Position numbers and translations under genes: made by a program
In this document: positions 1,378 to 60,722 of the stretch, one piece after another
Position numbering within the stretch: position 1 is the first letter of the stretch
How the letters are laid out: each line of letters starts with the position of its first letter
Source of the DNA: Minisyncoccota bacterium
GTDB taxonomy: Bacteria; Patescibacteriota; Minisyncoccia; Phycocordibacterales; SW-6-46-9
DNA: 64,000 nt
Direction of reading: 5' to 3'
Assembly: GCA_040905385.1 (NCBI GenBank)
Contig: JBBDRP010000002.1
Location: 395,526 to 459,525, forward strand
The notes under the pieces: model-generated
What the model saw: only the letters and a program-made list of their open reading frames with translations
Database searches by the model: none
Told to the model about the DNA's origin: nothing

Positions 1378-1923
1378 ATGAAGGTAATTCTATTACAGGA
1401 CGTTCCAAACGTAGGAAAGAAATTTCAGGAAGCTGAGGTTGCCAATGGCTATGGCAGTAACTACCTTATCCCGAATGGTCTGGCACAGGTGGCTACAGAG
1501 GAAACCTTGGCCCGTTACAGTGCTCAGCAGGAGGCTGCTGAGGCAGCTCGACAGGAAGCTCGTGAGAAGCTAGCAACAGCCGTGGAGACGATTGATGGTA
1601 GTACTGTTACCATCACCGTAGAGAATGCTGGTGATCAAGGTCAGCTATTTGCTGGTATTTATCCCCAAGACATAGCCGCGGCTGTAAATAAGGAGTTCGG
1701 TGTGGATATTGCCGGTGTGGATATTGACCGAGACGCACCAATCAGCAAGGTGGGGGAGGAAGATGTGACCGTATCAATCCTGGATACGACCGTGACTGTT
1801 ACCGTCGAGGTGACTGCAGATAACTTTACCGATGAGGCTGATCCGGATGCAGATGAGGAGGAAGTAGAAGAGTATGATGAAGATTTCGTTGATGATGAGG
1901 TCGCGGATGAAGAAGAGGAATAG
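1378..1923 (+). CDS. rplI: 50S ribosomal protein L9 with poly-acidic C-terminal tail
   Basis: N-terminal MKVILLQDVPNVGK..EV..GY..NYLIP matches the L9 signature; the C-terminal 30 aa are D/E-rich (DEADPDADEEEVEEYDEDFVDDEVADEEEE). Confidence 0.85.
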   Translation: MKVILLQDVPNVGKKFQEAEVANGYGSNYLIPNGLAQVATEETLARYSAQQEAAEAARQEAREKLATAVETIDGSTVTITVENAGDQGQLFAGIYPQDIAAAVNKEFGVDIAGVDIDRDAPISKVGEEDVTVSILDTTVTVTVEVTADNFTDEADPDADEEEVEEYDEDFVDDEVADEEEE

Positions 1924-1986: not shown

Positions 1987-2055
1987 TTAAATGTGACTAA
2001 TTATAGGGCTATTATAAGAAAAAGGTATGTACTACTTGCCTGCGTAAAGCAGACA

Positions 2056-2205
2056 TGACTACCAAGCGGAGTGAGCGAAACGCAAGTTTACTTGCATGTC
2101 CGAACGGAGCGCCGGGAGGCAGATTGATAAATCTGCTCATCAAACGGAGTGAGCGACATGGTCACTTGTATCCATGTCCGAACGTAGTGCAGAGAGACAA
2201 ATAAA
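2056..2205. repeat. Structured repeat family, locus 1: two tandem ~65-nt units (ACCAAGCGGAGTGAGCGA..hairpin..TGTCCGAACGGAGCG..hairpin)
   Basis: Units at about 2056-2140 and 2141-2205 share the motifs cggagtgagcga and gtccgaacg with a second locus at 17813-17950; the internal hairpins covary between copies (gcaagt/acttgc vs gacatgg/ccatgtc; gcagat/atctgc vs gcagg/cctgc). Confidence 0.55.
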
Positions 2206-2210
2206 TGGCT

Positions 2211-2235
2211 AATATTCGCAGTATTTGCGAATATT
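2211..2235. promoter_or_regulatory. Perfect palindromic operator AATATTCGCA-N5-TGCGAATATT upstream of the promoter of gene 2399..3130
   Basis: 10-bp inverted repeat with 5-bp spacer, centred about 50 bp upstream of the -35; nearly identical copy at 31684..31708. Confidence 0.6.
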
Positions 2236-2269
2236 AAGAGTATACTCGGACAAATGTCCCACCATTTAT

Positions 2270-2297
2270 TTGACAAACATTATACAATATGTACTAT
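2270..2297 (+). promoter_or_regulatory. Sigma70-type promoter (TTGACA-16-TACTAT) for gene 2399..3130
   Basis: Consensus -35 and near-consensus -10 with 16-bp spacer; the whole about 110-bp block is duplicated at 31680-31790. Confidence 0.55.
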
Positions 2298-2398
2298 TAT
2301 AGTCAGAAAGTAATAGATAGATCAAATAATGGTCTTTCAAATTTTAACCAAGAGGACGCAAGATGTACTCCTCTCCAAAGCAAAAAAGGTGAAACCGT

Positions 2399-3130
2399 AT
2401 GAAAATTCTTGTTATCGAAGATACTCAAAAACACCTGCAAGACGCTAAAGAATACGTATCAAATCTTGTGAATTGCTCGGTTCATTATGCAACCACACTC
2501 ACAGAAGCCATGGAATTACTCGAGAAGAATGAGTACGATGCCGTAATTTCTGATGTATTCTTTCCTGCAGACAGTGAGTCTGAGGCAGATACATATGAGA
2601 ATGCGCTGACAGTTTCTAAAAAACTGAGAGAACTCGATGTTTACCACGTGTTTAACACATCCTTGCATCACCATGGTTCTGGCTTCGGGAATTTTTTCAG
2701 TGACGCTAAAATCCTTCAGGATTTTAGTCTTGCTAAGATCATTGAGGTATTTCCTGATGTAAATAGCTGGAATGAAGCCGTAAACAGCATCAGTCTAGTA
2801 TCTTACCCATTCACAATAGGGGTAGTTCTTGAGTCAAATATTAGTGGAGAAGAGGTGGATACGAAGCAGTGGGAAGGAGCTTTCCGTCAAGTTATTTTGG
2901 CTATTGAGGTTCGTCCTATTATTCTAGAAAATCGATTCAAGCTTTCAAAAGCACTTAAAAAAGGAAGAGATGGAAAAGGATACGAAGATCTGAATTCTCT
3001 CGTAGAAAAATACTATGGTGGTCCGATAAAAACTAGTTTCCATACCATTTTTGACTATGGACGTACCACTTCAAATTTAAGAGATACTCCAGACCATTTC
3101 CAGAAAATTTTTAAAAAATACAATGCTTAA
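2399..3130 (+). CDS. Orphan response-regulator receiver-domain protein with uncharacterised C-terminal domain
   Basis: N-terminus MKILVIEDT..DAVISDVFFP resembles a CheY-like receiver (acid pocket E7/D8, putative phospho-Asp in ISDVF); the C-terminal about 120 aa have no recognisable domain; AT-rich gene behind the duplicated operator/promoter cassette. Confidence 0.5.
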   Translation: MKILVIEDTQKHLQDAKEYVSNLVNCSVHYATTLTEAMELLEKNEYDAVISDVFFPADSESEADTYENALTVSKKLRELDVYHVFNTSLHHHGSGFGNFFSDAKILQDFSLAKIIEVFPDVNSWNEAVNSISLVSYPFTIGVVLESNISGEEVDTKQWEGAFRQVILAIEVRPIILENRFKLSKALKKGRDGKGYEDLNSLVEKYYGGPIKTSFHTIFDYGRTTSNLRDTPDHFQKIFKKYNA

Positions 3131-3212
3131 AAATTGGATTGTCTAGACCAGAAGATTTGTGGATGATTTCGTAAGAAATCTGTACACAGATTAAACCAAT
3201 AAATTAAAGGCG

Positions 3213-3240
3213 GCAAGATTGAATCTTGTCGTCTTTTTTC
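3213..3240. terminator. Bidirectional terminator between 2399..3130 and rnr
   Basis: Hairpin caagat-tga-atcttg followed by tcgtctttttt. Confidence 0.5.
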
Positions 3241-3305
3241 ATACCCAAATATTTAGTTTTTAGTCAACCAGCATGGTCAAACGAATAAATGAGGCACAAA
3301 TTTTT

Positions 3306-5276: not shown

Positions 5277-5394
5277 ATGTCTATGAGTGTATCACAGTCA
5301 GGTGATTTTATAAGTCGCTTGTATAATATTGACAAATAGACAATATTAGGTAGAATAATAATCAGACTAAATCTTTAATAAAACGGAGAATAAA

Positions 5395-6257: not shown

Positions 6258-6704
6258 ATGTTACGAATAAGACTTTCAAGAGTAGGCCGAAAACACGACC
6301 CATCCTATCGGATGATTGTGACGGAAAAAGGTCGTGGGCCACAAACAGGAAATTATGTTGAGCAGGTTGGTACGTATGATGCTCGCTCAGACGAGCACAA
6401 CCTGAAGGCTGATCGTATTACGCACTGGATTTCAGTGGGTGCGCAGCCAAGTGATACGGTACACAACCTTCTTCTGAAGGCTGGTGTTATCAAGGGTGAG
6501 ACAGTTAATCCGCTGCCAAAGAAAACGCCGATTGTTTCTGAATCTGACCCCGTAAAGGAATCTGAAGATTCCCACGAGGCAGGAGAAGAAGAGGAAGCAG
6601 AAAAAGCTGATGAAGAATCTGATGACGAAGATAACGAAGCCGTGGAAGCTGAGGAAGATAATGAGGACGACGATACTGACGAAGAAGAGGAGGAAAATCA
6701 GTAG
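6258..6704 (+). CDS. rpsP: 30S ribosomal protein S16 with long poly-acidic C-terminal extension
   Basis: MLRIRLSRVGRKHDPSYRMIV..ITHWISVGAQPSDTV is canonical S16; internal ATG at 6258 within ORF 6210..6704; C-terminal about 65 aa are D/E-rich and carry the 41-nt element shared with udg. Confidence 0.85.
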   Translation: MLRIRLSRVGRKHDPSYRMIVTEKGRGPQTGNYVEQVGTYDARSDEHNLKADRITHWISVGAQPSDTVHNLLLKAGVIKGETVNPLPKKTPIVSESDPVKESEDSHEAGEEEEAEKADEESDDEDNEAVEAEEDNEDDDTDEEEEENQ

Positions 6705-6738
6705 AAAGTCGAAAGTCGAAAGTTGAAAGTTGAAAACC
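6704..6738. repeat. Heptamer tandem repeat array (GAAAGTC x2, GAAAGTT x2, GAAAACC)
   Basis: Five 7-nt units starting in the rpsP stop codon and running into the terminator stem. Confidence 0.7.
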
Positions 6739-7230: not shown

Positions 7231-7260
7231 AAAAGCCGACCTTATTGGCCGGCTTTTTTA
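7231..7260. terminator. Bidirectional terminator between the KH gene and membrane gene 7242..7691
   Basis: aaaagccgacc-ttat-tggccggctttttt. Confidence 0.6.
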
Positions 7261-7691
7261 TGTTTATTTGCAGATTCTATAATCCTTCTTTTACCGAGCA
7301 TATACCCAATCCACGCACTCATAATTGTACTCGTAAATATTACAACAAGATAGGCTACAGCTAATTCTTCAAAACGTGAGAAGATATCAATAGGTAAGCT
7401 ACCTAGGAGAAATATTCCTAAAGGACTAAATAGTGCATACGTGGCTAAGCTTATACCCACCCATTGCTGATTTCCATCACTACTGACAAGATAAGCGAAT
7501 ACTGCAATGGAGAAAGCCATGATTAGTATAGAGATTACCGAAATTATAACAGCGATCGTCGTCATCTGTATACTGGTGATTTGAAATAAATCAGGAAATG
7601 CGAATACTTTAACAATTGCAGTGATTAACCAGATAAGAATTATAACTATTGCTGGATAAAAAGAGCCACTATGAGATTTTGAAGTTGACAT
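7242..7691 (-). CDS. Hypothetical 4-TM membrane protein (paralog A; divergent from trmD)
   Basis: 149-aa hydrophobic ORF; its upstream promoter region is about 85% identical to that of 8723..9142. Confidence 0.5.
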   Translation of the reverse strand: MSTSKSHSGSFYPAIVIILIWLITAIVKVFAFPDLFQITSIQMTTIAVIISVISILIMAFSIAVFAYLVSSDGNQQWVGISLATYALFSPLGIFLLGSLPIDIFSRFEELAVAYLVVIFTSTIMSAWIGYMLGKRRIIESANKHKKAGQ

Positions 7692-7733
7692 ACAACCTCC
7701 GGATTTAAGAGTTAAAGGTAGTTTCTGTCTTTA

Positions 7734-7762
7734 TTAATACCACTAAAATGCTATACTTGCAA
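7734..7762 (-). promoter_or_regulatory. Sigma70-type promoter for 7242..7691 (TTGCAA-17-TATTAA on the minus strand) with conserved spacer
   Basis: The same promoter, with a near-identical 17-bp spacer (ccacNaaaatgNtatac), recurs at 9185..9213. Confidence 0.5.
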
Positions 7763-7837
7763 GGTACGTGAATTCTCTACAAAATATAGAGGTTCAATCA
7801 TAATTCCTAATTCTTAAATTCTCTATTCAAAATTTCT

Positions 7838-7943: not shown

Positions 7944-8642
7944 ATGCAATTCACAATAATTACAATATTTCCTGGCATGATCAAAGCCTATACCGACGAG
8001 TCGATCCTTGGTCGGGCGCAGGCAGATGGCCACATCCAGGTCGACATCATCGATCCGCGTGACTTTGCTGAAGACAAGCACAACAGTGTGGACGCACCGC
8101 CGTATGGTGGTGGACCAGGGATGGTCATGCAGGCCGAGCCGGTGCTACGCGCTGTTGAGAAAGCGCGTAGCGAGTCGAAAGTAGAAAGTAAAAAGTCGAA
8201 AGTCGTTGTATTATCGGCGCAAGGAAAGCAGTTCGATCGTCAGATGGCAAAGGGTACGGCAACAAGTATTGAGCATCTTATTTTGATCTGCGGGAGGTAC
8301 GAAGGGATTGACCGGCGAGTAATTGAAGCGCTGGAGGCCGAGGAAGTTTCGGTAGGGCCGTACATCCTTACTGGCGGTGAGTTGCCAGCACTGATCATGG
8401 TCGATGCGACCGCTCGGTTTGTATCAGGAGTACTTGGCAATGAGGAGTCCTTGGAGGATGAGCGTAGTGCCGGCACACACGTGTATACCCGACCAGAGAC
8501 CATTACCTATGAAGGCCAGGAGTATACGGTTCCGGAGGTACTAATGAGCGGTCACCACGCCGAGATCGAGGAGTGGCGAGCCCAGCAAGCCCCTCCTTCG
8601 CACAAGGCTTCGGAAGGGCGAAGGAAGAATCAGGAATCATGA
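7944..8642 (+). CDS. trmD: tRNA (guanine37-N1)-methyltransferase
   Basis: GGGPGMVMQAEPV, ICGRYEGIDRRV and ILTGGELPALIMVDA motifs; carries an in-frame heptamer-repeat insert encoding SESKVESKKSKV. Confidence 0.9.
   Translation: MQFTIITIFPGMIKAYTDESILGRAQADGHIQVDIIDPRDFAEDKHNSVDAPPYGGGPGMVMQAEPVLRAVEKARSESKVESKKSKVVVLSAQGKQFDRQMAKGTATSIEHLILICGRYEGIDRRVIEALEAEEVSVGPYILTGGELPALIMVDATARFVSGVLGNEESLEDERSAGTHVYTRPETITYEGQEYTVPEVLMSGHHAEIEEWRAQQAPPSHKASEGRRKNQES
8177..8204. repeat. Heptamer repeat array inside the trmD CDS (GAAAGTA GAAAGTA AAAAGTC GAAAGTC)
   Basis: Four in-frame 7-nt units of the GAAAGTN family encoding KVESKKSKV. Confidence 0.7.
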
Positions 8643-8722: not shown

Positions 8723-9142
8723 TTATTTTTGGAGATTATTTCCAATCCACATAGAGATAATCCAACCTGAAATTGCGTAAAGATTAAATATCAATCCTGG
8801 TAGGTAGTTGGCACCTACACTTGGTAATGTAAAAAGTGCTGCTGGAACCAAAAAGCTGACAACTATAAGATTAATAATTGCAGTTCGAGGTCTTTCTTTG
8901 CATTTCCAAAATCCGATCATTAGAAATGGAAAAGATGCAGTAAGAAGAGAAAAGCTTACAACCACTGGATTCTCTATACTTACGTTAAGAAGTGTGGAAA
9001 TTAATGACTCTTCTACTCCGGTAAGTAGCTGTACTAGAATAAGAAAGAATCCAATCATAAGCCAAGCTACTAGTATTACTGCAGGAACAAGAAGTATCTT
9101 TTCAACGGGTATCAACTGATTTTGTTTCTCGAAAGAAGTCAT
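8723..9142 (-). CDS. Hypothetical 4-TM membrane protein (paralog B; divergent from mnmA)
   Basis: 139-aa hydrophobic ORF; promoter region conserved with paralog A. Confidence 0.5.
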   Translation of the reverse strand: MTSFEKQNQLIPVEKILLVPAVILVAWLMIGFFLILVQLLTGVEESLISTLLNVSIENPVVVSFSLLTASFPFLMIGFWKCKERPRTAIINLIVVSFLVPAALFTLPSVGANYLPGLIFNLYAISGWIISMWIGNNLQK

Positions 9143-9184
9143 AAGACCTCCTTTTTTAAGAGTGAAAGATTATATCTGTATTTA

Positions 9185-9213
9185 TTAATACCACGAAAAT
9201 GATATACTCGCAA
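9185..9213 (-). promoter_or_regulatory. Sigma70-type promoter for 8723..9142 (TTGCGA-17-TATTAA on the minus strand)
   Basis: tttattaataccacgaaaatgatatactcgcaaggta matches the 7731-7765 block. Confidence 0.5.
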
Positions 9214-9278
9214 GGTAAGTAGGGTTACTTGCATTGGTAATAAAACACCTTCATGATTCCTCATTCTTATCTCTTAAT

Positions 9279-9315: not shown

Positions 9316-10440
9316 ATGCTACCTAACTACATACAAAATATAGAAGATAAAGAAAACACGCACGTCTTCGTGGCAATGAGCGGCGGGGTGGACTCGTCTG
9401 TAGCCGCTTACCTCTTGAAGGAAGCTGGCTTTCAGGTGACTGGCTGTTTTATGACGGTCTGGCAGCCACCATTTCTTGACTGCTCGATGGAGAGCGAGCG
9501 ACAGGATGCGATGCGCGTGGCTGCTGAGCTCGAGATTGACTTTCAGACGGTGGATCTGGCTGAGGAGTACAAGACTCGTGTGGTCGACTACATGATTGCC
9601 GAGTACAAGGCGGGGCGGACACCTAACCCAGATGTGATGTGCAACGGTGAGATTAAATTTGGTGCTTTTTTTGACTGGGCGATGGATGAGGGAGCAGACT
9701 ATGTGGCGACTGGACATTATGCGCGGCTTCGCAAGTCGAAAGTAGAAAGTGGAAAGTCAAAGGTTGAATTACTAGCCGGAGTTGATGAGAAAAAGGATCA
9801 GACGTACTTTCTGTGGCAGGTACCAACCGATCGACTAGAAAAAACGATGTTTCCCATCGGTCATCTAGAGAAGTCACAAGTACGCGAAATCGCGACCGAA
9901 GCTCAGCTGCCAGTGGCAGACAAAAAAGACAGCCAGGGTCTGTGCTTTCTTGGCCAAGTTGACATGCCGACATTCCTCGCCGAGTTCACCGACCTGAAAC
10001 CCGGAGACGTGCTTAATGAAGCCGGCGAGGTCATCGGTACCCATGATGGGGCGGTGGTCTATACCATCGGCCAGCGACATGGTTTTAATATCCAGAAAAA
10101 GATGCCAGACAGTGGTCCGTGGTATGTCACCGACAAAGATACCGAAGCTAATACCATTACCGTCACCGAGGACAATACCATCGGTGGCGCCACCTTCAAC
10201 TGTCGTGAGATGAAGCTTACAAAGACAAACTGGATCAACGGCCAGCCCGAGGGTCGGCTGCAGGCACGAATCCGCTATAATCAAACGTTGCAGCCGTGTG
10301 AAGTTATGGAGAAGGACGGAGAAGTCGTTGTCACCTTTGATGAACCACTGCGGGCAGTGGCTGTGGGGCAGTCGTGTGTGGTTTATGATGGAGAGCACTG
10401 TCTGGGGGGAGGAATCATTGACATAATAAATATAGTGTAG
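9316..10440 (+). CDS. mnmA: tRNA-specific 2-thiouridylase
   Basis: PP-loop VAMSGGVDSSVAAYLL, catalytic Cys motifs; in-frame heptamer insert encoding KSKVESGKSKV. Confidence 0.9.
   Translation: MLPNYIQNIEDKENTHVFVAMSGGVDSSVAAYLLKEAGFQVTGCFMTVWQPPFLDCSMESERQDAMRVAAELEIDFQTVDLAEEYKTRVVDYMIAEYKAGRTPNPDVMCNGEIKFGAFFDWAMDEGADYVATGHYARLRKSKVESGKSKVELLAGVDEKKDQTYFLWQVPTDRLEKTMFPIGHLEKSQVREIATEAQLPVADKKDSQGLCFLGQVDMPTFLAEFTDLKPGDVLNEAGEVIGTHDGAVVYTIGQRHGFNIQKKMPDSGPWYVTDKDTEANTITVTEDNTIGGATFNCREMKLTKTNWINGQPEGRLQARIRYNQTLQPCEVMEKDGEVVVTFDEPLRAVAVGQSCVVYDGEHCLGGGIIDIINIV
9738..9765. repeat. Heptamer repeat array inside the mnmA CDS (GAAAGTA GAAAGTG GAAAGTC AAAGGTT)
   Basis: Same family as the arrays at 1932, 6704, 8177 and 17259. 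Confidence 0.7.
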
Positions 10441-11196: not shown

Positions 11197-11228
11197 AACT
11201 TTACAGACCTTTGACTTTAGACTCTTTG
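11197..11228. repeat. Heptamer-family repeat (reverse orientation: ..GAGTCTAAAGTCAAAGGTCTGTAAAGTT) in the leader of 11250..12089
   Basis: Reverse complement of GAAAGTN-like units immediately upstream of the ATG at 11250. Confidence 0.5.
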
Positions 11229-14044: not shown

Positions 14045-14722
14045 ATGAGCAACAAAGATAAAACTGCGGCATTAGAGGCGCTAAAGGACGAGGTGGTTGC
14101 CTTGGAAGCGTCGCCGCTGTATACGTACCGTCAGGAGCACGGTTATCTACCGGTGCTGGGTGAGGGAAGTCACGATGCTGATATTATGTTCATCGGTGAG
14201 GCTCCCGGAGAGAGCGAGGCCAAGACCGGTCGGCCATTTTGCGGACGAAGTGGGAAGCTTCTGGATGAGTTTTTGGAGCATATTAATCTTGATCGTGCGG
14301 ATGTGTACATCACCAATGTGCTGAAGGATCGCCCGCCAGAGAATCGTGATCCGCAAACGGACGAGATTGAGATTTATACGCCTTTTTTACGCCGGCAGAT
14401 CTCAATCATCCAGCCGAAGGTGATTGCTACGCTAGGTCGTTTCTCGATGGAGTTTATTGCCGATGAGTACGGTATCGAGCTGGATGGTACGATTACCCAG
14501 GTACGGGGTAAGATTTACGAGATAGACCCCGGTACCACGTCGTCTGACCCCGTAGAGGAATCAGAAAATTCCCACGAGGCAGGTGACGACGGCTACGGGG
14601 CAGGGGAGGATGGCCAGACGATTACCTTTATCCCGCTGTTTCATCCGGCCGTAGCGTTGTATGATGGTTCCAAGCGCGATGTGCTGAAGGAGGATTTTGA
14701 AACATTGGCCGACTTCACATAA
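14045..14722 (+). CDS. udg: Uracil-DNA glycosylase, family 4
   Basis: GEGSHDADIMFIGEAPGESEAKTGRPFCGRSGKLL and FIPLFHPA motifs; in-frame insert SSDPVEESENSHEAGDDGYGAGEDGQT before the HPA motif. Confidence 0.8.
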   Translation: MSNKDKTAALEALKDEVVALEASPLYTYRQEHGYLPVLGEGSHDADIMFIGEAPGESEAKTGRPFCGRSGKLLDEFLEHINLDRADVYITNVLKDRPPENRDPQTDEIEIYTPFLRRQISIIQPKVIATLGRFSMEFIADEYGIELDGTITQVRGKIYEIDPGTTSSDPVEESENSHEAGDDGYGAGEDGQTITFIPLFHPAVALYDGSKRDVLKEDFETLADFT

Positions 14723-16700: not shown

Positions 16701-17270
16701 ATGAGATTCGCGATACAAGGTGGACCGGGGAGCTTTTCGGCCGAGGCCGGTGGTCGCTATGCAGATGACAATGACCTGACGCTGGAGCTTGATTACCGCT
16801 ACACCAGCGAAAATGTTCTTACGGCGGTTGAGGAAGGCTCGGTAGAGCAGGGGCTGATAGCGATTGAGAACGCCACCGGTGGCGTAGTGTATGAATCAAT
16901 CGAGGCGCTGGCCGAGCATCGCTGCCGGATTCTACACTTCCTGAATATCTTGGTGGTGCATGCGCTGCTTGTTCGGCCCGGTACTTCGATAGATACCATT
17001 GAATGCATCATCTCGCATCCACAGGCACTTAAGCAGTGTGAGGATACGCTAGCCACACGATTCGCCGATATTCCTACCGAGGTAGGGAAGGGTGAGGCGG
17101 TCGATCAGGCTACGGCTGCCAAGCAGCTGGCTGAGGGGAAACTGCCGGCAACAACGGCGGTGCTGGCCTCTCGTGTCTGCGCTGATCTGTATAATCTAGA
17201 GATCGTTGCCGAGAACCTACAGGATATCGAGGAAAACTATACGACGTTTTTGGTAGTCGAAAGTCTATAA
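16701..17270 (+). CDS. Prephenate dehydratase-like (PDT catalytic domain only, no ACT domain)
   Basis: MRFAIQGGPGSFSAEA..AIENATGGVVYESIEAL resembles the PDT N-terminal region; 189 aa. Confidence 0.4.
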   Translation: MRFAIQGGPGSFSAEAGGRYADDNDLTLELDYRYTSENVLTAVEEGSVEQGLIAIENATGGVVYESIEALAEHRCRILHFLNILVVHALLVRPGTSIDTIECIISHPQALKQCEDTLATRFADIPTEVGKGEAVDQATAAKQLAEGKLPATTAVLASRVCADLYNLEIVAENLQDIEENYTTFLVVESL

Positions 17271-17288
17271 AGTAGAAAGTCAAAAGTT
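17259..17288. repeat. Heptamer repeat array (GAAAGTC TATAAAGTA GAAAGTC AAAAGTT) spanning the stop codon of 16701..17270
   Basis: GAAAGTN family; followed by GAGTGAGTGAAACG, which resembles the start of the structured repeat units. Confidence 0.6.
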
Positions 17289-17456
17289 GAGTGAGTGAAA
17301 CGAAGGAAATCCAGCCCTAGCGTGCTGGGGCTGGATAAATGGGGAAATTTAAGGTGAGTTACTTTACAATACTGTATTTATTGTGTATTATAATAATCAG
17401 AAGCACCAAAGTTACTTAAACAATAATCCAAACTAATCAAACCAGAGAGGTTTGTT

Positions 17457-17693
17457 ATGAAAATAGAAAAAGAATTATCATTAGCCAAGACATATAGAGC
17501 AATATTCCTGATACTCTTTGTTGTCTCTGCTATCTTTGCAATTTTTGTTTTTAGTATAGAAGGTGTAAACAGTGAGTTTTTTTTGGGGCCTTTTGCACTG
17601 AGTATCCTTACGGGTTTTATGATTAAATTTATGAGTAGAGTCGTATCGGATGTAAAAAAAAGAATGAAAGCAAAAAGTACGGAAAATGCTTAA
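17457..17693 (+). CDS. Hypothetical small membrane protein (paralog 1 of 3)
   Basis: 78 aa, two TM; leader caaaccagagaggtttgttATG with the SD inside a caaacc/ggtttg hairpin; terminator at about 17705-17740. Confidence 0.4.
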   Translation: MKIEKELSLAKTYRAIFLILFVVSAIFAIFVFSIEGVNSEFFLGPFALSILTGFMIKFMSRVVSDVKKRMKAKSTENA

Positions 17694-17812
17694 ATCTATT
17701 TTTGATCCCGTTGTCTATCTAGGCAGCGGGATTTCTTTTATGTACGTGCTGTTACCCCCCCTAGCTAATAGTATTTAGCTAATGGGAACATCCGATGTTC
17801 ACATTATGTACT

Positions 17813-17950
17813 TGACTACCAAGTGAAGTGAGCGACATGCAAGCTTGCTTGCATGTCCGAACGGAGCGATGGGAGGCAGGAACCTGCTCACCAAGCGGAG
17901 TGAGTAGAATGAACGCTTGCATTTATTCTCGAGCGAAGTGCCGGCAGACA
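17813..17950. repeat. Structured repeat family, locus 2: two tandem ~70-nt units
   Basis: accaagtgaagtgagcgacatgcaagcttgcttgcatgtccgaacggagcgatgggaggcaggaacctgctc followed by accaagcggagtgagtagaatg..; homologous to locus 2056-2205 with compensatory stem changes. Confidence 0.55.
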
Positions 17951-18033
17951 AACAGATAACTATCTTCTGAGTCAAACTCAGAAGATAGGAGAGTTTTAAA
18001 CTCTTCTTGGTTTATATCTGTTATCTGTTTGAC
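17947..18033. repeat. Nested palindrome complex (gacaaacagataac [ctatcttctgag-tcaaa-ctcagaagatag][agagtt-ttaa-aactct] .. gttatctgtttgac)
   Basis: Outer 14-bp inverted repeat enclosing a perfect 12-bp-stem hairpin and a second hairpin; overlaps the -35 of the promoter for 18123. Confidence 0.5.
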
Positions 18034-18057
18034 AACACTTATAAAGTTATCTACTAT
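18029..18057 (+). promoter_or_regulatory. Sigma70-type promoter TTGACA-17-TACTAT for the small-membrane-protein genes
   Basis: Consensus -35 and a -10 identical to the one in the cargo cassette. Confidence 0.5.
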
Positions 18058-18122
18058 ATATAGCAGAAACACATAGTTCTATTAAATAAAAATCGAAATA
18101 AACCAAACCTTAGGAGGTTTGT

Positions 18123-18410
18123 ATGGAATTGTTACTCGCACTAATTGCTATAGGAGTTATTGGAACTCTTTTGAGTTTATTCTATGGCGACAATCTGATT
18201 GTTTTTCTGCTTCTAATAATCACTACAGCTGTATCTATGGCTATTTACTCAGTTTATGGTCTAGGGGGTCTGGAGAGCTATCTCGGTATAGCTTTATACT
18301 TTGGGTCATTTATCTGGGCTATTGGCGCATTTGGGCTTTATGTGTGGCAGGTAAGACGAGGGAATGCTGAAGAAGAGAAGGAGGTGGAAGAAACACCAAA
18401 GTTCTATTAA
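18123..18410 (+). CDS. Hypothetical small membrane protein (paralog 2 of 3)
   Basis: 95 aa, 3 TM; leader aaaccttaggaggtttgtATG. Confidence 0.4.
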   Translation: MELLLALIAIGVIGTLLSLFYGDNLIVFLLLIITTAVSMAIYSVYGLGGLESYLGIALYFGSFIWAIGAFGLYVWQVRRGNAEEEKEVEETPKFY

Positions 18411-18447
18411 ATTAAAATCGAAACAAGTAAACCTTAGGAGGTTTGTT

Positions 18448-18678
18448 ATGGAAAATGTGTTAATGGTATTTGCGCACATTATCATTGTGGGTATAACGAT
18501 CCCTGTTTTATATATTATTTATAAAACAAATCGTATCATTGCTATATGCTCAATCTTAATTGCTGGGGCGCTTATTATCTATTCTTTAATAAATAATATC
18601 GCTATGCCTATATCCTCACTTTCGATAATCTGGATAGTGGGGGTGGTAATGTATCTAAATGAAAAAATTGTCGGATAA
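18448..18678 (+). CDS. Hypothetical small membrane protein (paralog 3 of 3)
   Basis: 76 aa from the internal ATG; leader aaaccttaggaggtttgttATG near-identical to the 18123 leader; terminator palindrome at 18721-18746. Confidence 0.4.
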   Translation: MENVLMVFAHIIIVGITIPVLYIIYKTNRIIAICSILIAGALIIYSLINNIAMPISSLSIIWIVGVVMYLNEKIVG

Positions 18679-18899
18679 TTATAATTCTCGGTGTCTAATT
18701 TCTAGGCATCGAGATTTTATAAATAACTCAACCGGTTGAGTTATTTAGCTCTTTTCTAAAAATAATAATTATTTCAACGAGACAACGGGGTGTTCGTGTA
18801 TTATTTTAAATACGTATCTCGTTAGTTGATAAGCGAAGTATCATCGGCTCAAGCCGCTATATATTTTTGATTAGCTACTATATTTGCTAGAATACCCAT

Positions 18900-20681: not shown

Positions 20682-20792
20682 TCTTCTAATTTGCGAGCAT
20701 ATGTGCCGGCTTGAGCCGTTTAATAAAGATGGCTATCTGAAAAAAATTTCTTTATACAAACCTCACGAGAGGAGGAGTTCGTTAAGTTAAGC

Positions 20793-20819
20793 GATTTAGA
20801 AATATAAAATTTCTAAATC
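20793..20819. promoter_or_regulatory. Perfect 11-bp inverted repeat GATTTAGAAAT-ATAAA-ATTTCTAAATC upstream of gene 20905
   Basis: Same 11-bp arm / 5-bp spacer architecture as the grpE operator candidate. Confidence 0.45.
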
Positions 20820-20904
20820 GGTATTCGCACGGTTTCCTTACATTTAATTATATGGAATTAATATAAAGTTAGTGGAGTTTAAAGTGTGCTAATATTATAA
20901 GTAC

Positions 20905-27584: not shown

Positions 27585-27606
27585 GTTACTATTACGCTAG
27601 CTTATG

Positions 27607-27633
27607 TATGAAAAATATACTGTATTTTTCATA
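27607..27633. promoter_or_regulatory. Perfect 11-bp inverted repeat TATGAAAAATA-TACTG-TATTTTTCATA upstream of grpE-dnaK-dnaJ (non-CIRCE operator candidate)
   Basis: Perfect palindrome about 70 bp upstream of the grpE ATG; no CIRCE (TTAGCACTC-N9-GAGTGCTAA) present in the operon region. Confidence 0.5.
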
Positions 27634-27661
27634 CGAACAAGGTCATCTAGTGTCACAAGAT

Positions 27662-31609: not shown

Positions 31610-31683
31610 AAATTCGCTCTATCACCACACAGGTTGAACCAGTGTGGTAAGGAAGCATACTCTAAATATATTAAAATGTGGCT

Positions 31684-31708
31684 AATATTCACAAATACTG
31701 CGAATATT
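31684..31708. promoter_or_regulatory. Second copy of the palindromic operator (AATATTCACA-N5-TGCGAATATT) upstream of the ankyrin gene
   Basis: One mismatch relative to the 2211-2235 copy; same spacing to the promoter. Confidence 0.6.
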
Positions 31709-31742
31709 ATGAGTATTATCGTACGTTTGTCCTGCCATTAAT

Positions 31743-31770
31743 TTGACAAAGAATATAAGATATGTATGAT
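31743..31770 (+). promoter_or_regulatory. Sigma70-type promoter TTGACA-16-TATGAT for the ankyrin gene (second cassette copy)
   Basis: Whole block 31680-31790 is about 80% identical to 2207-2315. Confidence 0.55.
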
Positions 31771-31842
31771 TATAGTCAGAAACTAAAATGTTCATTGTAT
31801 AATTCGATATCCAGTGATTAAAACAATAAAGCGAGGTGAATT

Positions 31843-32382
31843 ATGGATTCTTCTATAAACTTTACTCGATATTTTTTAGATGCAGTAAGCTATGGTGATG
31901 AAAAAGCTATGCGTTTTTTTATCAAAAAAGGTGCTGATATTAAGGGAGTAAAAGATGGTGGTACAACAGGATTAATGCTTGCTGCAGAGAAAGGTCATTT
32001 AGGTATTGTTAAAATATTTCTAAATGAATATAGTGTGAATGTGGATCAGAAAGACAAAAAAAGAGGAAACACAGCCTTGATTTATGCCATACGTCGTTCT
32101 GGAAGTACGCCTGTTCCGTGTACAAAAAAACTTCTTGAGAAGTACATAAAAATAATCGAGTTATTACTTGATTACGGTGCTGATGTAAATGTTAAAAACA
32201 AATACGGAAAAACACCTTTGATGTATGCATGTGAAGATGAGTACGGACTTAGATGGCACATCGTTGATATCTTAAACAATAATGGAGCCAATCTAGGTAC
32301 TAAAGACACGTGGGGTAAAAAAGCTCTAGATTACGCACGCGAAAATCCTGGAATTGTTGGTATTAAGGTATCTGCAATATAA
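31843..32382 (+). CDS. Ankyrin-repeat protein
   Basis: Three to four ANK repeats (TGLMLAAEKGHLGIVKIFL; GNTALIYAIRR; KTPLMYACE..IVDILNNNGANL); AT-rich; terminator at about 32423-32455. Confidence 0.7.
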   Translation: MDSSINFTRYFLDAVSYGDEKAMRFFIKKGADIKGVKDGGTTGLMLAAEKGHLGIVKIFLNEYSVNVDQKDKKRGNTALIYAIRRSGSTPVPCTKKLLEKYIKIIELLLDYGADVNVKNKYGKTPLMYACEDEYGLRWHIVDILNNNGANLGTKDTWGKKALDYARENPGIVGIKVSAI

Positions 32383-32674
32383 AAATTTAACTTTGTAACT
32401 TATTTACAAATATAAATATTAAGGCCAATCGGAGAATCCGATTGGCTTTTTTCTTTGCGAGTAGGTCGCTTAGGCTGTATTATAAAAAAGTATGAGTAAT
32501 GAAAATAAACCCCAGCGGTCGTTCACCTGATACCTTCTCAATCTCCACGCGTTAATTTATCCAGCGATAAATTACGCTCACTCTCAAATAATTTCCACTT
32601 TCAGCGGACCCTGCAAATTATTCTCCGAGAGGGAGCTGAGAAGGAACGGGTTCACTTTAAGGTAAAATGATTTT

Positions 32675-44962: not shown

Positions 44963-45241
44963 ATGAAGGAGTCTGGATTCATTCGTATAATTTTACTGAT
45001 TGTCGGCGTCATCATTTTACTGATGGTCAGCGGAATCGATGTTCGCGAAACAATCGAGTCAGTAGATGTTAGCAAACAGCTGGCAAATTTCCAGACGACT
45101 GCTATAAATTTTTACACCGGCCATATCCAGGAGCCACTGTATCGATTTGTGATCACACCAGCTGTGACGCTGTACGGATACATCAAACTTTACATAATAG
45201 ATGTTCTTGTTGAATTTATCCAGCAAAACACCGATATATAA
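44963..45241 (+). CDS. Hypothetical small membrane protein
   Basis: 92 aa, one TM. Confidence 0.35.
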   Translation: MKESGFIRIILLIVGVIILLMVSGIDVRETIESVDVSKQLANFQTTAINFYTGHIQEPLYRFVITPAVTLYGYIKLYIIDVLVEFIQQNTDI

Positions 45242-45249
45242 GGTTAAAA

Positions 45250-45740
45250 TACTGATACAGGAGGCAAAATCTTTTAATATCACATAATAAGGCTTATATT
45301 AGGGCTATTTCGCCCAAACGCTCTAATTTGGCCATAGCGCGGTGTTTATACGAAAGAGGTGTCCTTGCACCTATATATGGGGCAAATAAGGCTAATAAGA
45401 GCCTGAATACACGAGAGGGCGTAAATTTATGATCCGGAAAGAGGTAAATCATGCGCAGACAGAATAAAAGCGAAAGTAAAATATAAAAATAAAAATATTT
45501 AAGGTTCAGGAGGGAATCCAGAGAATATTTTCATCATAAAAATCAGCCAGATAGTTGTTGAGGGTTGAGTAATGAAAGAGAAGAGAAGGTACTGTGGATA
45601 AGAGGTAAGTGAAAGCATGTATAATGGGCGCAGTGAATAAGGTTCGCATAATTTAACTTAACCGACTATATAGGGGATATTGAATGGGTCTGAGGCTCGG
45701 ATACAATGTACATAGCTCATTCTGTTAAATCGTAAGTTCT
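45250..45740 (+). ncRNA. ORF-free purine-rich 490-bp region; candidate structured ncRNA (possibly divergent RNase P RNA)
   Basis: No ORF over 60 aa on either strand despite 490 bp; local resemblance to RNase P RNA conserved blocks (GAAAGaGGUG..AUAUGGGGCA; ACACGAGAG; GGUAAGUGAAAGCAUG..GGGCGCAG; ACAGAAU; AUAGGGG); local hairpins GGGCUAUUUCGCCC and GGUGUCCUUGCACC. Confidence 0.3.
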
Positions 45741-45744
45741 ATAT

Positions 45745-46701
45745 ATGAAAAAAAGCTCAACACCAATAATAAAGCATCTCCATGACTTTCTCGACTGGAT
45801 CGATGTCGAGAAAGGCTTGGCTTCGACGACGCAGGAAAATTACGCTCGCTTCCTGGAACGCTTTTTTCAGTGGTTGAGAAACAATGATCTTACAGACCTG
45901 AAACCACATGAGCTCTCTGAGGATCATGTCTGGAAGTATCGTATTTATTTGGCTCGATACGCTAAAGGAACCGGATCCGAGGGGTTAAAGCGTAGCACCC
46001 AGCAGTACTACCTAATTGGCTTGCGGAGTCTGCTGCGATACTTTACCAAACGTGACATTACTTCCCTTCCCCCGGATAAAATTACGTTACCGAAGGATGA
46101 TACTGGTGATGAGGTACGAAACCTGACCATTGATCAGTTAAAAAAGATTTTTAAAGCACCAGATGTATCTACCAAAAGCGGTCTGCGAGATCGGACAATC
46201 CTGGAGACCTTTTTCTCTACCGGTATGCGAATATCTGAGCTGGTAGCTTTAGATAAGAAGCAGATTTCAAGTTCTATAAATAAAGACGAGCTGGAGCTGA
46301 GTATTACTGGTAAAGGTAGAAAAACTCGAACCGTTTACTTTTCGCCCCGAGCTCTGAAGTGGCTCGGCCGGTACCTGCAGTCACGCAAGGATGATGAGCC
46401 TGCCTTGTTTGTTAACTACCGAGCACCAAAGGATGCGTCACGGCGTCTGACACCTCGTTCAATTCAAAAACGGGTAAAAAAATATGCCGTATCCGCCGGT
46501 CTCCCGCAGGACACGACACCGCACGTGCTTCGACACTCTTTTGCAACAGATCTGCTGCGAAAAGGTGTTGATATCCGTATTCTGCAGGAGTTTCTCGGTC
46601 ACAGTAGTATTACAGCAACCCAGATATACACTCATGTAACCGACAAGCAGCTGCGGGATATACACGGTAAATTTCATGGTGGTGATGAACTAGATGAGTA
46701 G
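45745..46701 (+). CDS. xerC: Tyrosine site-specific recombinase, XerC/XerD type
   Basis: RISELVAL (Arg I), HVLRHSFATDLL (HxxR), LGHSSITATQIYTHV (catalytic Tyr). Confidence 0.85.
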   Translation: MKKSSTPIIKHLHDFLDWIDVEKGLASTTQENYARFLERFFQWLRNNDLTDLKPHELSEDHVWKYRIYLARYAKGTGSEGLKRSTQQYYLIGLRSLLRYFTKRDITSLPPDKITLPKDDTGDEVRNLTIDQLKKIFKAPDVSTKSGLRDRTILETFFSTGMRISELVALDKKQISSSINKDELELSITGKGRKTRTVYFSPRALKWLGRYLQSRKDDEPALFVNYRAPKDASRRLTPRSIQKRVKKYAVSAGLPQDTTPHVLRHSFATDLLRKGVDIRILQEFLGHSSITATQIYTHVTDKQLRDIHGKFHGGDELDE

Positions 46702-46705
46702 ACTG

Positions 46706-46918
46706 TTATGCAACATCAAAATTTTCCCACCATGGCATGGCGATGTATAGAAAAGCAACCATAGGCACTAGAAAAATTCCGGTAAAGATTTTTACTGGTA
46801 CACTGGTGGTCTCCCAGCTGGGCTTTACCAGGTCAAGAAAGATTCCCATCGGAATGATGATAAAGCCTGATACGCCCTTAATAACGGCGCGTATGAATAT
46901 TTTGAGATTTTCTGACAT
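46706..46918 (-). CDS. Hypothetical small membrane protein
   Basis: 70 aa, two TM. Confidence 0.35.
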   Translation of the reverse strand: MSENLKIFIRAVIKGVSGFIIIPMGIFLDLVKPSWETTSVPVKIFTGIFLVPMVAFLYIAMPWWENFDVA

Positions 46919-47185
46919 ATTTATATTATATAAGGTGTAGTATAGATTGTCAAACTAATAATCCATAACGTATAACGCAAATCTTGTAGCGAAAAAAACC
47001 GCCTAATTTAGAGATATGAGCACCTTCCTTCATAAATCTATAAGACCGCGATTATAAATCGTAGTCGCTAACTCAAAGCAGCCCAGTTGTTTTTACGTGC
47101 CTTATACTAAAGTCGAATTTGGTACTTCCCTACTAAATCGTGTATACAGTAAAAGTTAAGGTAGGTTACCTTCAATGCGAATGTT

Positions 47186-47298
47186 CTCTTTTCTAGACCT
47201 CGCGCAAGGCGCTTAGCATGGTGTTCCTCGTACGCGGAACTGAGCGCCTGAGCGGATATAAGTCCTCGTCAGGGACTTATTTGTGTCTTAGAAAAGAG
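47186..47298. ncRNA. Candidate structured RNA element (multi-hairpin, bracketed by ctcttttctag / cttagaaaagag)
   Basis: Outer 11-bp inverted repeat enclosing hairpins gcgcaaggcgc, gttcctcgtacgcggaac and aagtcctcgtcagggactt; lies next to the 3' end of the - strand gene 47307..47633. Confidence 0.25.
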
Positions 47299-47306
47299 GA
47301 TATGAG

Positions 47307-53062: not shown

Positions 53063-53159
53063 ACGAGTATACGAAACTTTGCCCTAAATAGCAAGTAGTT
53101 TTACACATTTTGATAAGAAAAAAGACCAAGCTGATTTGCTTGGTCTTTTCGACAGTTGA

Positions 53160-53783
53160 TTAAACAGCCGTCGCTGAAACTTTGTTTTTCGAAATGATAT
53201 CATCTGTCATTAGACTAACTACACGCTGCGTTAAGGCAGTATCCAGATGTTGGATTACATCGATGGTTTTCATACCAAATCCGGAAGTTAATTCATCAAC
53301 TGATTCAATGAATATCTGTGAAAGTCTTTCGTTGGTGGGATTATTTTCCTTCCAACTGAATTTCTTTGACTCAGTACATCTATTTATCTCAGACTTGATT
53401 CGACTCAAATGAAAGTGAATTTGTTTGATTTGTATCTCAGTGCAATTTTCTGGCAGATAACTACGTCGCTTCTGTAGAGAACCAAGTTGCTTGATTGCAC
53501 TCGAAGAAAAAACATTTTCTGGATAAATTAAAACTTGCTTACCCTCTCCATTTAATCCACTTCTATACTTATCTGATTGAATCACCAGAAGATCTGAAGG
53601 TAGTAATCTGACCTCGAAGTCGATTATTTCAGGCATGCGAAATTTCTTGTGACACAAATATTGGTTTATCAGCCCAGCACCGCAAATATAACTTATAAGA
53701 TGGTAATTGTTTATTTCAAACATCCGTGCAGAGATAATAATATCTGCTGCGGTGGGGTTATACTTCATACGAAGCTTGTTCAT
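53160..53783 (-). CDS. Hypothetical AT-rich protein in the conserved rpmF-upstream (yceD/DUF177) position
   Basis: 207 aa, no recognisable motif; directly upstream of rpmF on the same strand, where DUF177/YceD usually sits; markedly AT-rich; perfect 29-bp tandem duplication in its promoter region. Confidence 0.3.
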   Translation of the reverse strand: MNKLRMKYNPTAADIIISARMFEINNYHLISYICGAGLINQYLCHKKFRMPEIIDFEVRLLPSDLLVIQSDKYRSGLNGEGKQVLIYPENVFSSSAIKQLGSLQKRRSYLPENCTEIQIKQIHFHLSRIKSEINRCTESKKFSWKENNPTNERLSQIFIESVDELTSGFGMKTIDVIQHLDTALTQRVVSLMTDDIISKNKVSATAV

Positions 53784-53861: not shown

Positions 53862-53919
53862 TATTTTTTATACGATATTCGTAATGTAAGTATTTTTTAT
53901 ACGATATTCGTAATGTAAG
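53862..53919. repeat. Perfect 29-bp tandem direct repeat (TATTTTTTATACGATATTCGTAATGTAAG x2)
   Basis: The second copy encodes the last 7 codons plus stop of rnhB (minus strand); the first copy is an exact duplicate in the 53160..53783 promoter region. Confidence 0.8.
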
Positions 53920-60600: not shown

Positions 60601-60701
60601 GTCCAATGCACTCTTCCACCTATTTCTTGTCTCGTTCCTCGACAAACAAAATTTTCTCACAATGTTCGAAACCAGATAAAAAGCAAAGAAGGTTGCTTTT
60701 T

Positions 60702-60722
60702 ATCCAACTGAGCTAACGGCCC
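60702..60722 (-). pseudogene. tRNA 5'-half fragment (GGGCCGTTAGCTCAGTTGGAT, acceptor and D arm) with no 3' half
   Basis: Abuts the trhO terminator hairpin at 60677-60706; resembles the tRNA-Ala 5' half. Confidence 0.4.

Follow-up and report, generated by a model that had tools for sequence, protein, structure and literature searches.

Correia repeat-enclosed elements of Neisseria, and repeats of the BOX, RUP and ERIC type, are short, modular, hairpin-rich intergenic repeats that supply promoters to neighbouring genes. Promoter-bearing small intergenic repeats of these kinds have been reviewed (PMC10969869, PMC3184786), and the intergenic repeats of halovirus HF2 also carry promoters (PMC8707807). 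These repeats appear to be the closest known counterparts, and cassette arrays the closest in organisation, of an element that we describe here from a Paceibacterota bacterium of the candidate phyla radiation. The DNA analysed is a 64-kb stretch (the window) of a 784-kb genome, and all copy numbers refer to that window. The element is a duplicated non-coding block in which a long palindrome is followed by a promoter, and its two copies, A and B, stand before two unrelated genes. The reading that we favour, while placing it a little short of evenly balanced, is that the blocks are paralogous portable promoter heads and that the palindrome acts as a nucleic-acid hairpin, either an insulator or a terminator. 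A literature search found no description of such heads in Patescibacteria.

An earlier note on this DNA had reported a block at 2207-2315 and 31680-31790 with about 80% identity, and the observation of a duplicated block is confirmed. Aligned without gaps at an offset of 29473, copy A (2207-2315) and copy B (31680-31788) share 85 of 109 bases (78%), or 83% if the flipped 5-nt centre of the palindrome is counted. Agreement is complete in the right arm of the palindrome (11/11) and nearly so in the left arm (10/11); it reaches 41/49 in the promoter, drops to 17/26 (65%) in the segment between the palindrome and the -35 element, and is 0/5 in the palindrome centre. Each copy is laid out as GGC, a 27-bp palindrome (TAATATTCGCA-N5-TGCGAATATTA), 32 poorly conserved nt, CCATTnATT-TTGACAAA, a 16-nt spacer, TAnnAT and then TAGTCAGAAA. 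The palindrome was said to be perfect in both copies; this is true of A, but B has one arm mismatch (TTCACA / TGCGAA). Beyond the block the identity is that of background for AT-rich DNA (31% over 105 nt upstream, 38% over 79 nt downstream). The similarity stops 80-90 nt (A) and about 50 nt (B) short of the start codons at 2399 and 31843, and the duplication therefore does not include the coding regions. Like Correia, BOX and ERIC elements, the heads are short, modular, non-coding and hairpin-rich, combine a promoter with a terminator-like hairpin, and occur before unrelated genes. Unlike Correia elements, they were seen in only two copies in 64 kb (plus one elsewhere), their main conserved part is the promoter, which always faces an AT-rich cargo gene, and the module to which they belong includes tRNA-like repeat units, named D1 below.

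The 3' half of the block carries, by its hexamers, its spacer and its position before a gene, a predicted sigma-70-type promoter. The TTGACA, 16-bp spacer and TACTAT or TATGAT described previously were recovered by a promoter scan, which scored 10/12 consensus matches in A (2270-2297) and 11/12 in B (31743-31770), 102 and 73 nt upstream of the start codons; transcription would start near 2304 and 31777. The conserved initiation region is indeed present in both copies, but it is not private to them, and its CAGAAA(C) ending is partly a genome-wide promoter feature. Promoters of the CAGAAA(C) type also occur at 5329(+), 18029(+) and 46953(-), before other AT-rich open reading frames (ORFs) of the window, and the family consensus is CCATTnATT-TTGACAAA, 16-17 nt, TAnnAT and about 6 nt to CAGAAA.

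To place these promoters we compared relatives over a few tens of kb each, at loci fetched through homologues of DnaJ and RNase R (L150, DnaJ 85% identical; L159-L163, RNase R 87-89%; L164, RNase R 87%), and the gene order of the fetched loci is that of the window. Family promoters also precede accessory ORFs in these relatives. Promoter identity is 0.80 between A and B, 0.62-0.65 between either of them and the promoter of L012 (another Paceibacterota metagenome-assembled genome), 0.60-0.65 to L164_c2, one of the L164 cassettes, and 0.33-0.57 to the others. The core of promoter B is almost identical to the L150 promoter in the same slot, between DnaJ and glycyl-tRNA synthetase (GlyRS) (ATATAAG-TATGTATGATTATAGgCAGA); among the relatives compared there, L150 is the nearest. 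A promoter of this predicted strength may well transcribe any AT-rich cargo placed downstream of it, as its consensus match, position and conservation suggest. The genome also holds a second, independent duplicated head (D6, 7682-7769 and 9133-9220, - strand), about 80% identical over about 100 nt including the 5' untranslated region (UTR) and the ribosome-binding site. The D6 heads precede two AT-rich membrane-protein genes (7242-7691 and 8723-9142) that lie on either side of trmD and have no detectable mutual similarity, which indicates that the reuse of promoter heads before unrelated AT-rich genes is recurrent in this genome. As a separate observation, a perfect 29-nt tandem repeat (TATTTTTTATACGATATTCGTAATGTAAG x2, 53862-53919), each copy of which contains TACGA-TAT-TCGTA, lies directly upstream of the -35 element (53856, - strand) of an AT-rich ORF at 53160-53783 and looks like a possible double operator.

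The two genomic slots that hold copies A and B are variable within this syntenic core. Cassette A, of about 1.3 kb (roughly 1990-3300), lies between the genes for L9 and RNase R. In L159-L163 this slot holds only the L9 terminator (about 85-100 bp), and in L164 (3644-5183, - strand) it holds three tandem promoter-ORF-terminator cassettes with unrelated small ORFs of 101, 72 and 112 amino acids (aa), stereotyped promoters and terminators, and conserved inter-cassette spacers (..CTTTCRACCAGTTT..). In L164, an inter-cassette terminator of this slot is homologous to the one that ends cassette A. Since the slot is empty or otherwise filled in relatives, cassette A is a lineage-specific filling of a variable slot. 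The DnaJ|GlyRS slot, which holds the ankyrin gene in the window, contains a 163-aa ORF in L150, unrelated to the ankyrin protein by BLASTP, and a likewise unrelated 211-aa ORF behind another promoter in L157/158; it measures only 87 bp and has no ORF in L151-153, and in L154-156 its roughly 500-590 bp include a remnant of D1 and no real ORF. The earlier note had offered a portable expression cassette as one of two interpretations, and this part of it is supported: a non-coding head precedes unrelated cargo, both slots are empty or occupied by other genes in close relatives, and L012, from another Paceibacterota species, has a further copy before a gene unrelated to the other two. We suggest that the blocks may be paralogous non-coding heads of single-gene accessory cassettes in variable intergenic slots of a streamlined genome. 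The sharp edges of the similarity, together with the comparison of slots among relatives, lead us to infer that the heads spread between slots by duplication or gene conversion, and that cargo was swapped downstream of the initiation region.

Copy A forms part of a larger module, in which one or more structured D1 repeats are followed by a perfect palindrome, about 30 nt and a promoter. This D1-bearing module is common to copy A, to a further window locus that we call cassette C, to L012 and to L164; copy B lacks D1. The D1 unit is about 70 nt long, usually occurs in tandem pairs, and has a 7-bp hairpin set between conserved flanks (CAARCGGAGTGAGCGA and TCCGARCGNAGYGC); the hairpin covaries at 7/7 pairs, with 94% of cells paired against 21-46% with a slid partner. 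D1 was placed at two sites in the window, at 5280-5352(-) in L012 and at 1428-1628(-) in L164, and L154-156 retain remnants of it near 11214. Among the matches listed, the unrelated metagenome contigs L126 and L127 also contain D1-like units; the pattern used also matches the reverse complement of tRNA-Pro genes, and most listed matches are tRNAs. The more distant relative L165 has neither D1 nor a head. Rfam has no family for D1 or for the block: only two tRNA-Ala genes of the window reach the gathering score, and over 1900-2420 nothing is better than E = 0.05 and no match overlaps the block meaningfully.

In cassette C the palindrome, CTATCTTCTGAG-tcaaa-CTCAGAAGATAG, is perfect and unlike that of A; it is followed by 40 nt, the promoter and ..AGCAGAAAC, and then by two small membrane-protein ORFs (18123-18410 and 18448-18678). 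In L012 the module lies after ruvB and consists of one D1 unit, an A-type palindrome mismatched as in B, a stretch of 33 unrelated nt that includes its own small palindrome, ATTTATTTGACAAG, a 16-nt spacer, TATAAA and TAATCAGAAAC; its cargo is a 263-aa ORF that has no Pfam domain and is unrelated to cargo A by BLASTP. The D1u2 unit and the palindrome are about 85-90% identical between the window and L012, and the adjacent DNA is unrelated. The D1 pair of L164 precedes a perfect palindrome of a further kind (CTTCTTCTCAG-tcttgt-CTGAGAAGAAG), a family promoter and a 131-aa ORF, and the stem of this palindrome differs from that of cassette C at three positions, each of which is changed on both arms. 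Near cassette C we also observed a 57-nt 5' UTR and ribosome-binding-site repeat (63-100% identical) at 17406-17462, 18072-18128 and 18397-18453, preceding three small AT-rich membrane-protein ORFs (starting at 17457, 18123 and 18448).

The palindrome itself has several features of a self-pairing element. The centre of B (AATAC) is the exact reverse complement of the centre of A (GTATT), matching at 5/5 positions when inverted and at 0/5 in the same orientation, so that the 27-nt units are 26/27 complementary and 21/27 identical in the same orientation. Because the centre is flipped between A and B, its orientation relative to the promoter is not constrained. Such a flip is what inversion of a loop between perfect arms would leave behind, the mutational signature of a self-pairing sequence. 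Folded as RNA, palindrome A reaches -13.6 kcal/mol on the + strand and -16.0 on the - strand, and palindrome B -6.6 against -10.1; the arm mismatch of B and L012 is A.C in + strand RNA and G.U in - strand RNA. A terminator scan picks out A (2237-2209) and C (17988-17960), both solely on the - strand, and leaves B unflagged. On the - strand the palindrome of A is followed by CCATTTATTT, and a T-rich tract follows it in all five copies (GCCATTTATTTGT, TTATCTGTTTGT and so on), the tracts being interrupted. Perfect hairpins are moreover abundant here: about 22 window loci have palindromes whose arms reach 9 bp or more around loops of 3-8 nt, against about 1 expected from shuffles (among them 20792-20820, 27606-27634, 18720-18747, 53120-53149 and 60675-60704), and several are AT-rich 12-bp/5-nt hairpins without a T-tail directly after core genes (AlaRS, S9).

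These features are consistent with a role for the 5' half as a long AT-rich hairpin that would end transcripts or insulate the cassette from the core operon upstream of it, rather than serve as a sequence-specific operator. It might block incoming read-through, or outgoing transcription directed upstream (divergent or antisense). Bidirectional initiation is common in bacteria (bioRxiv 10.1101/2020.01.31.928960; PMC12825309), and the promoter region of the block is pseudo-symmetric with promoter-like hexamers on the - strand, so that stopping upstream-directed transcripts, or read-through out of the core operon, would be a coherent role for the hairpin. The palindrome shares with intrinsic terminators a stable perfect hairpin and a T-rich tract on the strand opposite the cargo, next to an AT-rich pseudo-symmetric promoter. 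It departs from them in its AT-rich stem (3 G-C pairs), in a T-tract that is interrupted and starts 3-4 nt after the stem, and in having no tail on the cargo strand.

Conceivably, the same promoter-like sites yield a product of their own, a divergent small RNA of about 70 nt that would run on the - strand from a back-to-back promoter (CTGACT-16-TATAAT/TATATT) and end at the palindrome and its T-rich tail. Promoter-like sites on the - strand overlap the + strand promoter in both copies (A, 2306-2279, 10/12; B, 31779-31752, 9/12), the hairpin and tail are on the appropriate strand, and the frequency of bidirectional promoters in bacteria speaks in its favour. However, neither L012 nor L150 has a good - strand promoter, Rfam has no match, and conservation within the block is lowest in the body of the proposed RNA (2237-2262), for which L012 has unrelated sequence. 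As its body is so poorly conserved, a functional - strand RNA is unlikely, and we give this alternative hardly any credence.

Several observations weigh against our favoured reading. There is no T-tract 3' of the hairpin on the + strand, and the evidence for either strand is thin and conflicting, with one G.U pair in the D1 hairpin favouring the + strand and one in the palindrome favouring the - strand. Upstream of copy A, L9 is already provided with a canonical bidirectional terminator (1959-1984), and an extra insulator is thus not obviously needed. Conservation within the block peaks in the A-type arms, where A matches both B and L012 at 21/22 positions, and the adjoining 32 nt have diverged, a pattern that also fits a sequence-specific binding site, as does the fixed distance from the palindrome to the -35 element (32 nt in A, 32 in B and 33 in L012). 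A profile run over about 220 kb of loci from relatives found no A-type copy, nor was one present in L165, which was checked separately.

In a rival reading the palindrome would instead be bound by a homodimeric regulator controlling a small group of accessory genes together, and the other palindromes would answer to other or diverged regulators. The arms are nearly invariant in three copies from two species, next to DNA in which A and B agree at 65% of positions and A and L012 show no relation, and the repeat recurs at a conserved spacing in all three promoters. The inverted centre would be irrelevant to a symmetric dimer. In the window the pattern AATATTCRCA-N5-TGCGAATATT is unique to the two sites, with 0.00 expected in 100 shuffles. 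The palindrome is centred about 81 bp upstream of the inferred start, as is typical of class I activators or response regulators, and a receiver-domain protein whose C-terminal half is uncharacterised is encoded by cargo A itself. An inverted repeat at a fixed distance from the promoters of two (or three) unrelated genes is what operators of dimeric factors such as class I CRP-type and response regulators look like.

Nevertheless, we consider this explanation unlikely, and on the sequence evidence we rate a structural role for the palindrome above a regulon under a single regulator. No helix-turn-helix protein or other regulator was found among the window ORFs checked, as the earlier note had already said of the window, and the C-terminal half of cargo A, modelled with very low confidence, has no DNA-binding match. 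The promoters are already near consensus (10-11 of 12), so that activation would be unneeded, and the palindrome lies farther upstream than simple steric repression would allow. Arms with 11-13 bp of perfect symmetry exceed what the half-sites of a regulator need, and operators of dimeric factors differ in this respect from the perfect 11-bp arms seen here. In C and L164 the corresponding position of the module is taken by other perfect palindromes. At the orthologous, syntenic promoter of L150, which serves other cargo, the palindrome is unrecognisable although the promoter core is kept, and the operator site would thus be unconserved there. A scan of 185,579 species representatives gave 14 matches, of which 13 were chance, leaving L012 as the only homologous one and the only further copy. 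Perfect hairpins with arms of 9-13 bp are, in addition, general in the intergenic DNA here. The small regulon under one dimeric DNA-binding protein that the earlier note proposed as its other interpretation is possible but the less likely of the two. We know of no fit, in orientation or spacing, between the arms and CIRCE, CRP/FNR, Rex, CodY, ARG boxes or others.

The hairpin-bearing heads that we favour must also be weighed against a mobile origin of the module. [quoted passage not shown] The module is present or absent at equivalent places in the window and L164: it lies upstream of the 131-aa ORF by rnr in L164 and is absent there in the window, and it lies at the L9|rnr slot in the window and is absent from that slot in L164. 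D1u2 and the palindrome are conserved with L012 amid unrelated DNA. The module begins with (T)TGACTAYCAA and finishes with ATTTATTTGACAAA, which places a short direct motif, TTGAC(T/A)A, at both ends, and short-read contigs of the source sample break inside D1. Unlike Correia elements and MITEs, however, the module showed no terminal inverted repeats when its ends were read, no dedicated terminal-repeat search having been run, and the comparison of the window with L164 gave no clean empty/filled pair and no clean target-site duplication. Copy B is without a D1 unit. Blastn against phage and plasmid collections found no match, and viral scans with the D1 pattern and the palindrome returned chance matches in GC-rich coding DNA or none. 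We regard such an element as quite unlikely.

A more specific form of this idea, that the palindrome is a recombinase core with 10-bp arms and a 7-bp asymmetric centre and that the tRNA-Pro-like blocks of D1 are att remnants, seems to us no less doubtful. The asymmetric centre is inverted between A and B, as in lox- or dif-type sites. Two blocks of the tRNA-Pro(CGG) reverse complement (GCACTGCGTTCGG and CTCACTCCG) run co-linear with the flanks of D1, and the only tyrosine recombinase in the window, at 45745-46701, is Xer-like. A palindromic site with an asymmetric centre beside cargo is reminiscent of Xer pdif modules. In contrast to dif and pdif sites, the centre is 5 or 7 nt long and misfits the 6-nt Xer geometry, each cassette has one palindrome and no flanking pair, and there is no dif-like site resembling the arms near the recombinase. 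The likeness to tRNA-Pro is confined to two short blocks with modest scores (z = 0.9-4.5).

It is tempting to speculate that the heads belong to a cassette system of this clade's own, in which accessory genes are exchanged at fixed slots by recombination anchored on heads and terminators, with D1 units and palindromes with asymmetric centres as the signals. This would amount to integron-like shuffling without an integron integrase, perhaps through DNA uptake or a Xer-type recombinase. As in integron arrays and Xer pdif modules, atypical single-gene cassettes are swapped at fixed slots, with up to three per slot (L164). Integrons differ in that no integron integrase is found in the window, nothing resembles attC (no formal attC model having been run), and the cassettes have their own promoter and terminator. 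We hold a system of this kind to be very unlikely.

The genes downstream of the two heads are unrelated and AT-rich, as had been described, with GC contents of 0.38 and 0.35 against about 0.45-0.54 for core genes. Cargo A had been called a CheY-like receiver with an unknown output domain. Its N-terminus is receiver-like, but the domain is weak and partial: the Pfam Response_reg match, at 23.2 bits, falls short of the 30.2 cutoff and extends over positions 1-53 of the 111 in the profile. The AlphaFold model is confident for residues 1-50 and moderately so to about 90; the mean predicted local distance difference test score (pLDDT) is 57, and that of the C-terminal half is below 50, which makes the structure unusable for judging DNA binding. 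Foldseek matches were weak and all to receiver (REC) proteins. The family of cargo A comprises 204 representatives, and no such head precedes its homologues P0002 and P0003 (45% identity), which means that the head is not bound to the REC-like gene family. The ankyrin-repeat assignment of cargo B is supported by a strong Pfam match. PADLOC and PHROGs returned generic REC and ankyrin matches for the cargo and nothing more. Coordinates of the features discussed are collected in the table.

Table. Positions of the palindromes, promoters, cargo genes and associated features in the 64-kb window.
Feature	Position	Strand	Basis
Copy A (palindrome, promoter and initiation region)	2207..2315	+	78% ungapped identity to 31680-31788
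Copy B of the duplicated head	31680..31788	+	ungapped comparison with copy A
Palindrome A, TAATATTCGCA-gtatt-TGCGAATATTA, perfect 11-bp arms, 5-nt centre	2210..2236	.	sequence, palindrome search
Palindrome B, TAATATTCACA-aatac-TGCGAATATTA, one arm mismatch, centre reverse-complemented relative to A	31683..31709	.	
Two short secondary palindromes, GAGTATACTC and GGACAAATGTCC, between palindrome and -35 of A	2238..2259	.	sequence reading, fold
Predicted promoter A: TTGACA 2270-2275, 16-nt spacer, TACTAT 2292-2297, initiation motif TAGTCAGAAA 2300-2309	2270..2309	+	consensus match
Predicted promoter B: TTGACA 31743-31748, 16-nt spacer, TATGAT 31765-31770, TAGTCAGAAA	31743..31782	+	consensus match
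Two D1 units directly upstream of copy A	2053..2200	+	repeat search, alignments, nhmmer
Cargo A, 243 aa, partial REC-like N-terminus, unknown C-terminal half, GC 0.38	2399..3130	+	Pfam, AlphaFold, Foldseek
Terminator of cassette A, GGCGGCAAGATTGAATCTTGTCGTC + T6	3209..3239	+	
Cargo B, 179-aa ankyrin-repeat protein, GC 0.35	31843..32382	+	Pfam Ank_2 at 1.2e-23
Canonical terminator after cargo B	32421-32449		terminator scan
Cassette C head: D1 x2 17810-17951, palindrome 17960-17988, TTGACA-17-TACTAT 18029-18057	17810..18060	+	

Genomes of the candidate phyla radiation are tiny and highly syntenic, and the gain, expression and turnover of their few variable genes, which probably mediate interactions with hosts or phages, are poorly understood. 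Reuse of promoter heads, with exchange of the cargo behind them at fixed slots, would, if it occurs, explain how foreign AT-rich genes can be expressed immediately. The combination of head, hairpin and D1 could then serve as a sequence tag for the accessory gene pool of uncultured bacteria in metagenomes. If, alternatively, the palindrome is a true operator, the genes behind it would be among the first candidate regulons in the group.

Other features of the window stand apart from the heads. Around 46.7 kb (45241-47300) GC skew and gene orientation switch, as at a replication terminus; the Xer-like recombinase gene lies by this switch, together with a 500-bp ORF-free stretch (45241-45745), and no obvious dif-like site was found there. 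Runs of GAAAGT-like hexamers (AGTCGAAAGTAGAAAGT...) occur at 1927-1965, 6685-6737, 8165-8203, 9726-9764 and 17256-17294. Three of the runs follow directly after stop codons (L9, S16 and prephenate dehydratase) and precede a terminator; the run at 8165-8203 is inside the trmD frame, and that at 9726-9764 is inside the next gene. Long acidic tails are present on many proteins of the window, and a 47-nt segment that is 89% identical at 6543-6589 and 14543-14589, exactly 8000 nt apart, encodes the acidic peptide SDPV[K/E]ESE[D/N]SHEAG in both places, once in the C-terminal extension of ribosomal protein S16 and once in an internal insertion of an unrelated 225-aa protein (14045-14722).

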